Part shown: positions 35,424 through 35,790 of the stretch, one piece after another | Layout of the letters: each line of letters opens with the position of its first letter | Position numbering within the stretch: position 1 is the first letter of the stretch | NCBI GenBank assembly: GCA_023428915.1 | Contig: JAEYWL010000046.1 | Span: 3 to 64,002 of the forward strand | Direction of reading: 5' to 3' | Origin: Verrucomicrobiota bacterium | GTDB taxonomy: Bacteria; Chlamydiota; Chlamydiia; Chlamydiales; JAEYWL01 | Length of the DNA: 64,000 nt | Position numbers and translations under genes: made by a program | Notes under the pieces: model-generated | What the model was told of the DNA's origin: nothing | What the model saw: only the letters and a program-made list of their open reading frames with translations | Databases searched by the model: none

Positions 35424-35495
35424 AGGACAATGGACCTTAATGACGCCATGGACCTTATGGACTTCCTAGACTAAGCGCCAGATGATTGCAATTAT
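35424..35495. repeat. Half of a split REP-2 palindromic repeat (9-bp periodic GAC)
   Basis: GAC at 35433, 35442, 35451, 35460 and 35469, ending ctaagcgcca. This matches the right half of the 63789-63892 copy in reverse complement. Confidence 0.7.
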
Positions 35496-35724
35496 CTAGC
35501 CGCGAATGCGGCGGAAGCATGTAGCCACAGGCGTAAGCCTGTGGAGATGTTCAATCAAATAACCAAGTCGTGAATACGACGACAGAAGCAAGTCCGGATG
35601 CTGTTGGTTTGATAAGTGTGAATATGGTCTTTTCTCTGCCGCAGCTACGCAGCTCATTAACTTGCCTTAATTATACCGCAGGTTTACACCTGCGGCTACA
35701 TGCTTCCGCCGCATTCGCAGCTAG
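35496..35724. repeat. Palindromic element A (229 bp) inserted in a REP-2 copy
   Basis: 31-bp terminal inverted repeats ctagccgcgaatgcggcggaagcatgtagcc (35496-35526) and ggctacatgcttccgccgcattcgcagctag (35694-35724), with 1 mismatch. Each arm is followed by its own 8-bp hairpin. Confidence 0.75.
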
Positions 35725-35790
35725 CCTAATCACTTGTCGTTAATGTCCATTGCGTCAATAATGTCGATGATGTCGTTTGTCTATTCCAAA
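35725..35790. repeat. Other half of the split REP-2 repeat
   Basis: The reverse complement ggaatagacaaacgacatcatcgacattattgacgcaatggacattaacgacaag matches the left half of 63789-63892. Confidence 0.7.

Follow-up and report, generated by a model that had tools for sequence, protein, structure and literature searches.

A palindromic element in a chlamydial genome as a probable gene-less copy of a Y1/HUH transposase unit with hairpin-rich ends

A canonical REP is a hairpin bearing a 5' GT[AG]G foot; when REPs in inverted orientation bracket a Y1 gene, the whole is called a REPtron, and dispersed doublets of inverted REPs are called REPINs (PMC6006769; PMC3733652). Systems of the REP/REPIN-RAYT (TnpA-REP) kind, the REPtrons, have been described repeatedly (Nunvar 2010; Bertels & Rainey 2011; Ton-Hoang 2012; Di Nocera 2013; Corneloup 2021), and enzymes of the E. 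coli type recognize folded single-stranded REP DNA in a strand-specific manner, the GTAG contributing to strand discrimination (PMC8266576). In the PVC superphylum, GTAG repeats are already on record for Opitutus and Rhodopirellula, and our literature search found no report linking REPINs or RAYTs to Chlamydiae. Other Y1 genes fall into different groups. TnpA-Y1 proteins of subclass 1.2 (motifs DH[IV]H, WQ, and YIKNQKEHH; median length, 148 aa; low copy) were defined by Quentin et al. 2018 (PMC6006769) as being near IS200 but without IS properties, are listed there as “REP: no,” and are mainly cyanobacterial and from Bacteroidetes, and TIRYTs, which measure about 238 aa and carry an HTH domain at the C terminus, have repeats of the form GGGG[AT][CG]A[CG].

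Here, we analyze a stretch of 64,000 nucleotides (“the window”) from contig JAEYWL010000046.1 of a chlamydial draft genome (GCA_023428915.1), in which a 229-bp palindrome, element A (window positions 35496-35724), lies 58 nt past the stop codon of a leucine-dehydrogenase-like gene. We consider element A to be probably a gene-less, non-autonomous REPIN-like or MITE-like copy of a transposase unit located on contig C127 of the same genome, and its origin as a copy of the hairpin-rich ends of a single-stranded DNA (ssDNA) transposase unit would explain its compensatory hairpin changes.

Element A and the repeat that it interrupts

Repeat finding places the inverted arms of element A at 35496-35544 and 35676-35724 (49 nt each, 90% complementary, spaced by 131 nt), in agreement with an earlier sequence-only reading of this DNA, which described a palindrome with terminal inverted repeats. 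The 31 bp given there for the terminal repeat applies if the CC shared with the adjoining hairpin is counted, the repeat otherwise extending for 29 nt up to that hairpin. Arm-to-arm symmetry is broken at five positions, four of which constitute two compensatory pairs in an 8-bp hairpin: read on its own strand, the right hairpin has the loop GTAA and differs from the left copy at four stem positions, an A-T pair having become G-C and a C-G pair T-A, such that each stem stays paired on its own strand, as had been claimed. By simple combinatorics, C(8,2)/C(20,4) x 1/9, the chance that four random changes in a 20-nt hairpin give two compensated pairs is about 6e-4. The remaining difference (C/T at 35501/35719) is located in another 5-bp hairpin, where, on the strand of the arm itself, it gives a T.G wobble. 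The 8-bp hairpin said to adjoin each terminal repeat is thus present, but it is one of three per arm, and another of them lies inside the “TIR” itself.

Each arm is a 94-nt module of three hairpins, read 5' to 3' inward on its own strand (Table 1). Hairpin 1 (hp1) has 5 bp, GCCGC-GAA(T)-GCGGC, with a GAA(T) loop, and is followed by about 8 nt ending in a GTAG foot; hp2 has 8 bp, a GNNA loop, and a conserved 5' (G/A/T)TAG foot; and, after a spacer of 20 to 25 nt, hp3 has 5 bp and a GAAT or GTTA loop and leads into GACAG. The left (L-type) arm folds at -22.0 kcal/mol (z score of -5.8) on its GTAG strand versus -19.7 on the complement, and for the right (R-type) arm the values are -18.1 kcal/mol on the arm's own strand versus -13.4 on the complement. 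The inner part distinguishes the two arms of every full copy in the genome, hp3 being GCCGT-GAAT-ACGGC in L-type arms and either GCTGT-GTTA-ACAGC or GCTGC-GTA-GCTGC in R-type arms, and the difference between the left and right hairpins in the window is therefore the old L-versus-R difference; the R arm of the copy on C19 shows a one-sided G.T intermediate of the pair change seen in the window. The variable centre between the arms bears a resemblance to the 5' end of the transposase gene (about 63% over 27 nt) that is too weak for it to be claimed as a remnant of that gene.

Table 1. Positions of element A, its surroundings, its relatives, and the gene-bearing unit (window coordinates unless a contig is named)
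Feature	Coordinates	Strand	Basis or remark
REP-2 left half, ending in ACTAAGCGCC	35424..35479		BLAST of joined flanks; alignment with 28 intact copies
16 extra nt, AGATGATTGCAATTAT	35480..35495	+	Missing from intact REP-2; not common to other element copies
L-type arm, 94 nt	35498..35591	+	Covariance model R1 match, 105.9 bits; pair counts
L arm, hp1	35499-35512		GCCGC-GAAT-GCGGC
L arm, GTAG foot	35521-35524		
L arm, hp2 (left 8-bp hairpin)	35525-35544		CCACAGGC-GTAA-GCCTGTGG
L arm, hp3	35567-35580		GTCGT-GAAT-ACGAC
L arm, GACAGAA	35581-35587		
Variable centre, 38 nt	35592..35629		Position held by the transposase gene in the parent unit
R-type arm	35630..35722	-	Covariance model R1 match, 97.9 bits
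R arm, GGCAG	35635-35639		
R arm, hp3	35641-35653		GCTGC-GTA-GCTGC, central T.T
R arm, hp2 (right 8-bp hairpin)	35676-35695		CCGCAGGT-TTAC-ACCTGCGG
R arm, CTAC	35696-35699		GTAG on the minus strand
R arm, hp1	35708-35721		T.G wobble on the minus strand
CCT between palindrome and REP-2 resumption	35725..35727	+	REP-2 alignment
REP-2 right half, starting with AATCACTTGTCGTTAATG	35728..35790		BLAST of joined flanks; REP-2 alignment
Full copy of element A, 72-76% identity	C48:28446-28668		BLAST and motif scan
Full copy of element A, 72-76% identity	C19:196-417		BLAST and motif scan
Full copy of element A, 72-76% identity	C66:4837-5057		BLAST and motif scan
Short copy of element A	C57:24511-24689		BLAST and motif scan
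Short copy of element A	C6:23574-23735		BLAST and motif scan
L-type variant arm	C127:22591-22706		Overlaps tnpA stop codon; hp1 ACCGGC-GAA-GCCGGT
Intact transposase gene (tnpA)	C127:22706-23167	-	Pfam Y1_Tnp (PF01797), 95.8 bits
R-type A arm	C127:23172-23265		Directly upstream of tnpA ATG

The sequences flanking element A are the halves of a host repeat, REP-2, and when joined they match about 76 places by BLAST in the 2.68-Mb, 131-contig genome. All 28 REP-2 copies that span the centre read ACTAAGCGCC followed directly by AAT(TG/CA)CTTGTCG, with identical spacing, and the extra DNA in the window's copy is therefore 35480-35727, i.e., 248 bp in which the 229-bp palindrome has 16 nt to its left and 3 nt to its right (with a boundary that is ambiguous by 1 to 2 nt). 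The search for empty sites that the sequence-only reading had proposed is answered by these 28 uninterrupted copies, which are paralogues within the genome, the nearest genomes compared being related at the family or order level with loci that are not syntenic. They define the boundaries of the insert, and, judged against them, the one interrupted site has no target-site duplication of more than 1 nt, both results being drawn from a single interrupted REP-2 paralogue. When folded as ssDNA, the reconstructed REP-2 is a single long, imperfect hairpin, in whose apical loop the insertion point falls. The claim that insertion occurred exactly at the REP-2 centre thus stands with respect to the centre and its apical loop but not with respect to exactness, given that the 248-bp insert extends beyond the palindrome on both sides. 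The 16 extra nucleotides and the next CT form an 18-nt near-palindrome, AGATGATTGCAATTATCT (window positions 35480-35497), which lies between the left half of REP-2 and element A and is absent from both intact REP-2 and the other element copies.

REP-2 is itself a long imperfect palindrome of 9-nt periodic ATGGAC/GTCNNT units, with further occurrences in the window at 63786-63892 and 63923-64000, and many of its copies are situated at contig ends, which makes it a probable cause of breaks in the assembly.

Around the other copies of element A, no second insertion site could be reconstructed: the copy on C48 abuts an arm of a sister family (family C, see below) whose hp1 loop is the point of truncation, the other half being absent, and the flanks on C66, C57, and C63 are unique. 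The C19 copy adjoins a different repeat (a palindromic repeat of about 128 bp, 20 nt away). With respect to insertion 3' of a fixed tetra- or pentanucleotide, as in IS200/IS605 elements, the flanks of the six element copies show no clear common motif, and several arms carry TTARGCTA outside hp1. An exact metagenome search with the end of the upstream gene returned no match.

A transposase unit with the same arms, and its gene-less copies

A search of the whole genome with Pfam Y1_Tnp detected one intact gene, on C127, and a second, frameshifted gene on C96 that is a paralogue at 45-55% identity; near-identical gene-bearing copies were not found. The arms of the C127 unit are inverted around the gene in the same L...R layout as in element A, with the gene replacing the 38-nt variable centre, and this Y1/HUH gene is the only gene in the genome to which such arms belong. 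The L-type variant arm of this unit is present in two direct copies (C127:22591-22706 and 23355-23471) that flank the gene together with its R arm, and these variant arms have a small nested extra hairpin inside the hp2 loop; in other phyla, too, some hp2 loops are long and enclose nested hairpins.

The encoded protein has 154 aa and contains H54-V-H56 (within DHVH), W94-Q95, and Y114-IQNQQEHH, of which H121 and H122 are invariant in 26 homologues. It passes the NCBIfam model for IS200/IS605 transposases (NF033573; 77.5 bits against a cut-off of 55) and fails the REP_Tyr_transpos (RAYT) model (NF047646; 21.6 bits against a cut-off of 80). Its best solved relatives by sequence are the TnpA proteins of IS608 and ISDra2 (E value of 6e-9 with the single sequence as the query and 1.5e-16 with a 26-sequence profile), and neither search retrieved E. 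coli TnpA-REP (4ER8). An AlphaFold model (pLDDT of 81.8) likewise has IS608/ISDra2 TnpA as its best Foldseek match (E value of 2e-9; TM score up to 0.73), followed by the RAYT structure 4ER8 (E value of 1.4e-6), and it contains no extra domain (no HTH).

The unit of C127 has gene-less counterparts in the genome: six doublets (on C68, C48, C19, C66, C57, and C6) comprise one L-type and one R-type arm each, as around the gene, and BLAST and a motif scan also locate dispersed solo or truncated arms. Because the copies are only 72-76% identical, any activity is old. A covariance model of the arm yields 42 matches in the genome, about 13 of them A-family arms and about 25 members of sister family C, such that the copy number of the A family is low (about 13 full arms and, in addition, fragments), in the tens and below the >100 per genome that is usual for REPs. 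The dispersal of gene-less doublets, like the interruption of REP-2 without duplication, is established; from the dispersal and the single interrupted REP-2 paralogue, we infer that the element has been mobile.

Dispersed copies of small size with terminal inverted repeats and no ORF would also describe a MITE of the classical kind, for which a DDE transposase recognizes the 31-bp TIRs and mobilizes the element as double-stranded DNA. We reject this explanation, which we consider extremely improbable, because there is no target-site duplication at the single reconstructable site and no DDE parent, the only gene in the genome with these ends being Y1/HUH; moreover, the “TIR” holds a covarying hairpin, which recognition of double-stranded DNA does not need.

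A closer alternative is that arms and gene are no more than a selfish IS200/IS605-type insertion sequence whose ends happen to be symmetrical, and that element A is its MITE or PATE, rather than part of a domesticated system like that of REPs and RAYTs; the two readings differ in lifestyle only, not in mechanism. The family-model scores, the closest solved structures, and the insertion without target duplication all suit a selfish element, and the gene-bearing unit does not occupy a conserved locus, since the sequences flanking its closest chlamydial homologues match other contigs of this genome. In addition, homologues from Planctomycetes (60-69% identity) are closer than most chlamydial ones (37-46%), a hint, from sequence comparison, of horizontal spread of the gene. 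Against this, there is one intact copy per genome and near-identical copies are absent, the ends form inverted repeats and not LE and RE hairpins that share a strand, an NTAG foot is characteristic of REPs, and subclass 1.2, which the protein resembles, lacks IS properties according to Quentin et al. (PMC6006769). On balance, we regard a selfish insertion sequence as unlikely and favor the reading of element A as a REPIN-like copy of the C127 unit.

Under that reading, and by analogy with IS608/ISDra2 TnpA and E. coli TnpA-REP, the C127 enzyme would bind the folded hairpin and its foot on ssDNA, and its catalytic tyrosine would cut and rejoin the single-stranded arm, thereby moving it. The fold rather than the sequence would then be kept, which would give rise to compensatory stem changes, with G.T tolerated only on the recognized strand, and insertion would proceed into a single-stranded target without target duplication, the target here being the apical loop of the REP-2 hairpin. 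The IS608 model, in which one strand serves for both ends, does not explain the movement of a doublet whose arms are on opposite strands, a difficulty that REPINs share.

The genome contains several further repeats of related construction. Family C has the same arm architecture with a different sequence (hp1 CCATCGC-GGAA-GCGATGG, a TTAG foot, a long hp2, and hp3 GCTGCGGCAGCAGC followed by GACAC), occurs as about 25 arms, many of them in doublets, and brackets the frameshifted Y1 gene on C96 (C96:20796-21223). A repeat in the window termed element B (40081-40314) contains a +/- doublet of family-C arms (hp1 AGCGC-GGTA-GCGCT, TTAG foot, long hp2, hp3 GCTGCGGTAGCAGC, GACAGAA); examined as a nested case, it gave no clean answer, as the flanks outside its arms are also repeated (on C101 and C106). 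Family D is a multi-hairpin repeat of 230 to 260 bp with >40 partial copies that ends in a degenerate A-type arm (C55:54240-54472, C85:1108-1366, C25:2619-2877, C6:18159-18244, C96:4842-4913, and C16:129-206). An A arm is cut inside hp2, between GCC and CAATGTC(A/G)TCAA, at five sites and, likewise, in another chlamydial MAG (L024), a recurrence that suggests either that the repeat is composite or that some element has the hp2 loop as its target. The palindromic repeat of about 128 bp found beside the C19 copy has a GTAG-footed AT-rich hairpin (…GAAAATCA-GTAG-GCCATATT-AWT-AATATGRC) and is present at C19:46-175, C35:48-175, C45:44294-44422, C31:5679-5806, C63:64-186, and elsewhere, often at contig ends.

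Covariation, strand preference, and occurrence in other genomes

To the extent that hairpins are maintained, other copies of the arm should carry stems that differ yet remain paired, and they do. Among 12 arms from this genome, 98.6% of cells are paired, with double changes at 8 of 18 pairs; none of 500 shuffles reaches the observed value, and slid controls pair at 26-60%. Among 149 distinct arms from 52 homologue loci in several phyla, 99.2% are paired and double changes occur at 17 of the 18 pairs (490 cells), whereas slid controls pair at 26-56%; fitting this alignment to a covariance model somewhat favors structure, and G.U slightly over A.C, although the margin is very large even so. The check for covariation that the sequence-only reading had recommended, made here from pair counts, therefore gives a strong result with no random, uncompensated pattern, and its suggestion that selection acts on single-strand structure, not on arm symmetry, is upheld by the different yet fully paired stems of the other copies.

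The arms also differ in how their two strands tolerate mismatches. Cells that are not Watson-Crick pairs comprise, on the NTAG strand, 34 G.T versus 6 A.C; 19 of the 34 G.T cells fall at one pair, without which the counts are 15 versus 6. In gene-adjacent arms, the ratio of G.T to A.C is 7:0 upstream and 10:0 downstream. The foot is GTAG in every one of the 12 arms from this genome, and among the 149 arms it is GTAG in 103, ATAG in 20, and TTAG in 16. The loops of hp1 and hp3 in the 149 arms are mostly GAA or GGA closed by C-G, and those of hp2 are often GNRA-like. Triloops of GAA or GGA closed by C-G form very stable DNA mini-hairpins.

These features bear on whether the hairpins might instead act as RNA (an sRNA, an mRNA stabilizer, or a terminator), with selection on a transcript, the sequence-only reading having allowed for either RNA or ssDNA. 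Covarying stems, GNRA-like hp2 loops, the position of element A just past the dehydrogenase-like gene, and the known effects of REPs on mRNA stability (PMC3733652) are all compatible with RNA. Yet G.T prevails on the NTAG strand of upstream and downstream arms alike, and these are on opposite strands, so one transcript would meet A.C in one of the two arms; the loops of hp1 and hp3 are of the kind that stabilizes DNA hairpins; and linkage of the arms to an HUH gene extends across many phyla. No Rfam family reaches its threshold, the sole match being throat-1 (window positions 35628-35890, minus strand; 26.1 bits against a gathering score of 124.4), which we judge to be noise from hairpin-rich sequence, and a terminator is rejected for want of a terminator-like site on the plus strand. 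Together, the strand asymmetry and the HUH gene point to folded ssDNA rather than RNA, and we consider a role in RNA very unlikely: each arm is optimized on its own NTAG strand, the two being opposite, and the arms are most likely ssDNA folds read by the Y1/HUH transposase.

The closest homologues of the C127 protein are from MAGs of Chlamydiae and Parachlamydiaceae (71-86% identity), followed by those from Planctomycetes, Verrucomicrobia, Acidobacteria, and others. A covariance model built from the 12 arms of this genome alone gives 160 matches at an E value of <=0.001 in 80 homologue loci from these groups, most of them either on the plus strand ending 4 to 16 nt before the ATG or on the minus strand starting at the stop codon, and both gene-adjacent arms are recognized in 27 loci and one in 8. 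A model-free test finds a significant inverted repeat around the gene in 58 of 78 loci, mostly from PVC bacteria and Acidobacteria, and the strict subclass 1.2 motif is present in 50 of the 78. By eye, the same architecture with different stems can be seen in Aridibacter (GCCATTGAAAATGGC...GTAG-CCCACGGT-GCAA-ACCGTGGG...AGCTATCGAAGATAGC-GACAT). The linkage of arms to the gene is thus established in many phyla. A Weeksellaceae MAG (L089; Bacteroidota) has arms without hp2 at 1370-1500 and 1956-2086, consisting of repeats of GCGAC-GAA-GTCGC and then GAAATGTTGGTAGAA, and arm design therefore varies by lineage.

Within the order, the transposase is encoded in 14 of 41 related genomes. Arms are present in 8 of the 41, and 7 of these 8 encode the transposase versus 7 of the 33 without arms (Fisher's exact test, P = 0.001), so the co-occurrence of arms and gene is an established observation at this level as well. 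Gene-less +/- doublets far from the gene also occur in three relatives (G010, G014, and G040).

These observations allow a broader proposal, which we put forward tentatively and with somewhat less than even confidence: that subclass 1.2 Y1/HUH transposases are the core of a widespread, undescribed type of REPtron, in which inverted, three-hairpin, NTAG-footed arms of 94 nt surround the gene across Chlamydiae, Planctomycetes, Verrucomicrobia, and Acidobacteria, and which has seeded REPIN-like doublets in environmental chlamydiae. If this is true, the subclass 1.2 system would bridge, in evolutionary terms, the gap from IS200 insertion sequences to REP-RAYT systems. The findings themselves give environmental chlamydiae a REP/REPIN-like repeat system, suggest that one class of IS200-like HUH enzymes thought to be without cognate repeats does have them, provide a concrete and testable mechanism for the compensatory hairpins and the nested palindrome, and explain some of the repeats that break up this draft assembly. 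The alignment of 149 arms, with its near-perfect covariation, offers a substrate set for learning how Y1 enzymes read folded ssDNA.

Relationship to described systems

Element A is a variant of the known theme of REPs or REPINs and their transposases, not a new kind of entity, and it compares with the described systems as follows.

(i) TIRYTs (Di Nocera 2013) also consist of a Y1 gene flanked by TIR-like sequences, with repeat copies occurring as singles and dimers. The C127 protein, however, has 154 aa and no HTH domain, and its ends are NTAG-footed hairpins; on account of the missing domain and the different repeats, the unit is not a TIRYT.

(ii) The IS200/IS605 family (IS608, ISDra2) and its gene-less PATEs include the closest sequences and folds, with the HUH motif and catalytic tyrosine aligned, and share hairpin ends and the lack of target duplication. 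The ends of IS200/IS605 elements are not inverted repeats, and both are read on one strand, whereas those of element A are inverted; and, in contrast to the near-identical multiple copies of such elements, the C127 gene has a single intact copy and no tnpB. Because its ends are inverted and its gene is single copy, the unit is not a classical IS200/IS605 element.

(iii) Subclass 1.2 corresponds to the C127 protein in motifs (DH[IV]H, WQ, and YIxNQxEHH), in length (about 150 aa), and in low copy number. It differs in its published status of “REP: no” and in its published distribution, mainly in Cyanobacteria and Bacteroidetes, inverted hairpin arms being present here at the majority of the homologue loci, most of these from PVC bacteria and Acidobacteria, as given above.

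(iv) REPtrons and REPINs provide the nearest overall parallel. With REPtrons, the C127 unit shares a GTAG-footed hairpin and a low-copy Y1/HUH gene bracketed in inverted orientation, and with REPINs, element A shares gene-less inverted doublets that are dispersed in intergenic DNA and whose stems are kept by compensatory change. The co-occurrence of REPs with a cognate gene across genomes has its counterpart in the A arms (7/8 versus 7/33), and their strand asymmetry suggests the strand-specific recognition of ssDNA known from characterized REP-RAYT systems. The differences concern the enzyme, which is of class 1 (Y---Q--HH, here YIQNQQEHH) and fails the REP_Tyr_transpos model, whereas RAYTs are of class 2 (Y---NP); the arm, a 94-nt module of three hairpins compared with a single REP of 20 to 40 nt; the doublet, which, unlike a REPIN, keeps the full gene flanks, including hp3-GACAG; and abundance, with A arms in the tens per genome where REPs usually exceed 100 and number in the hundreds.
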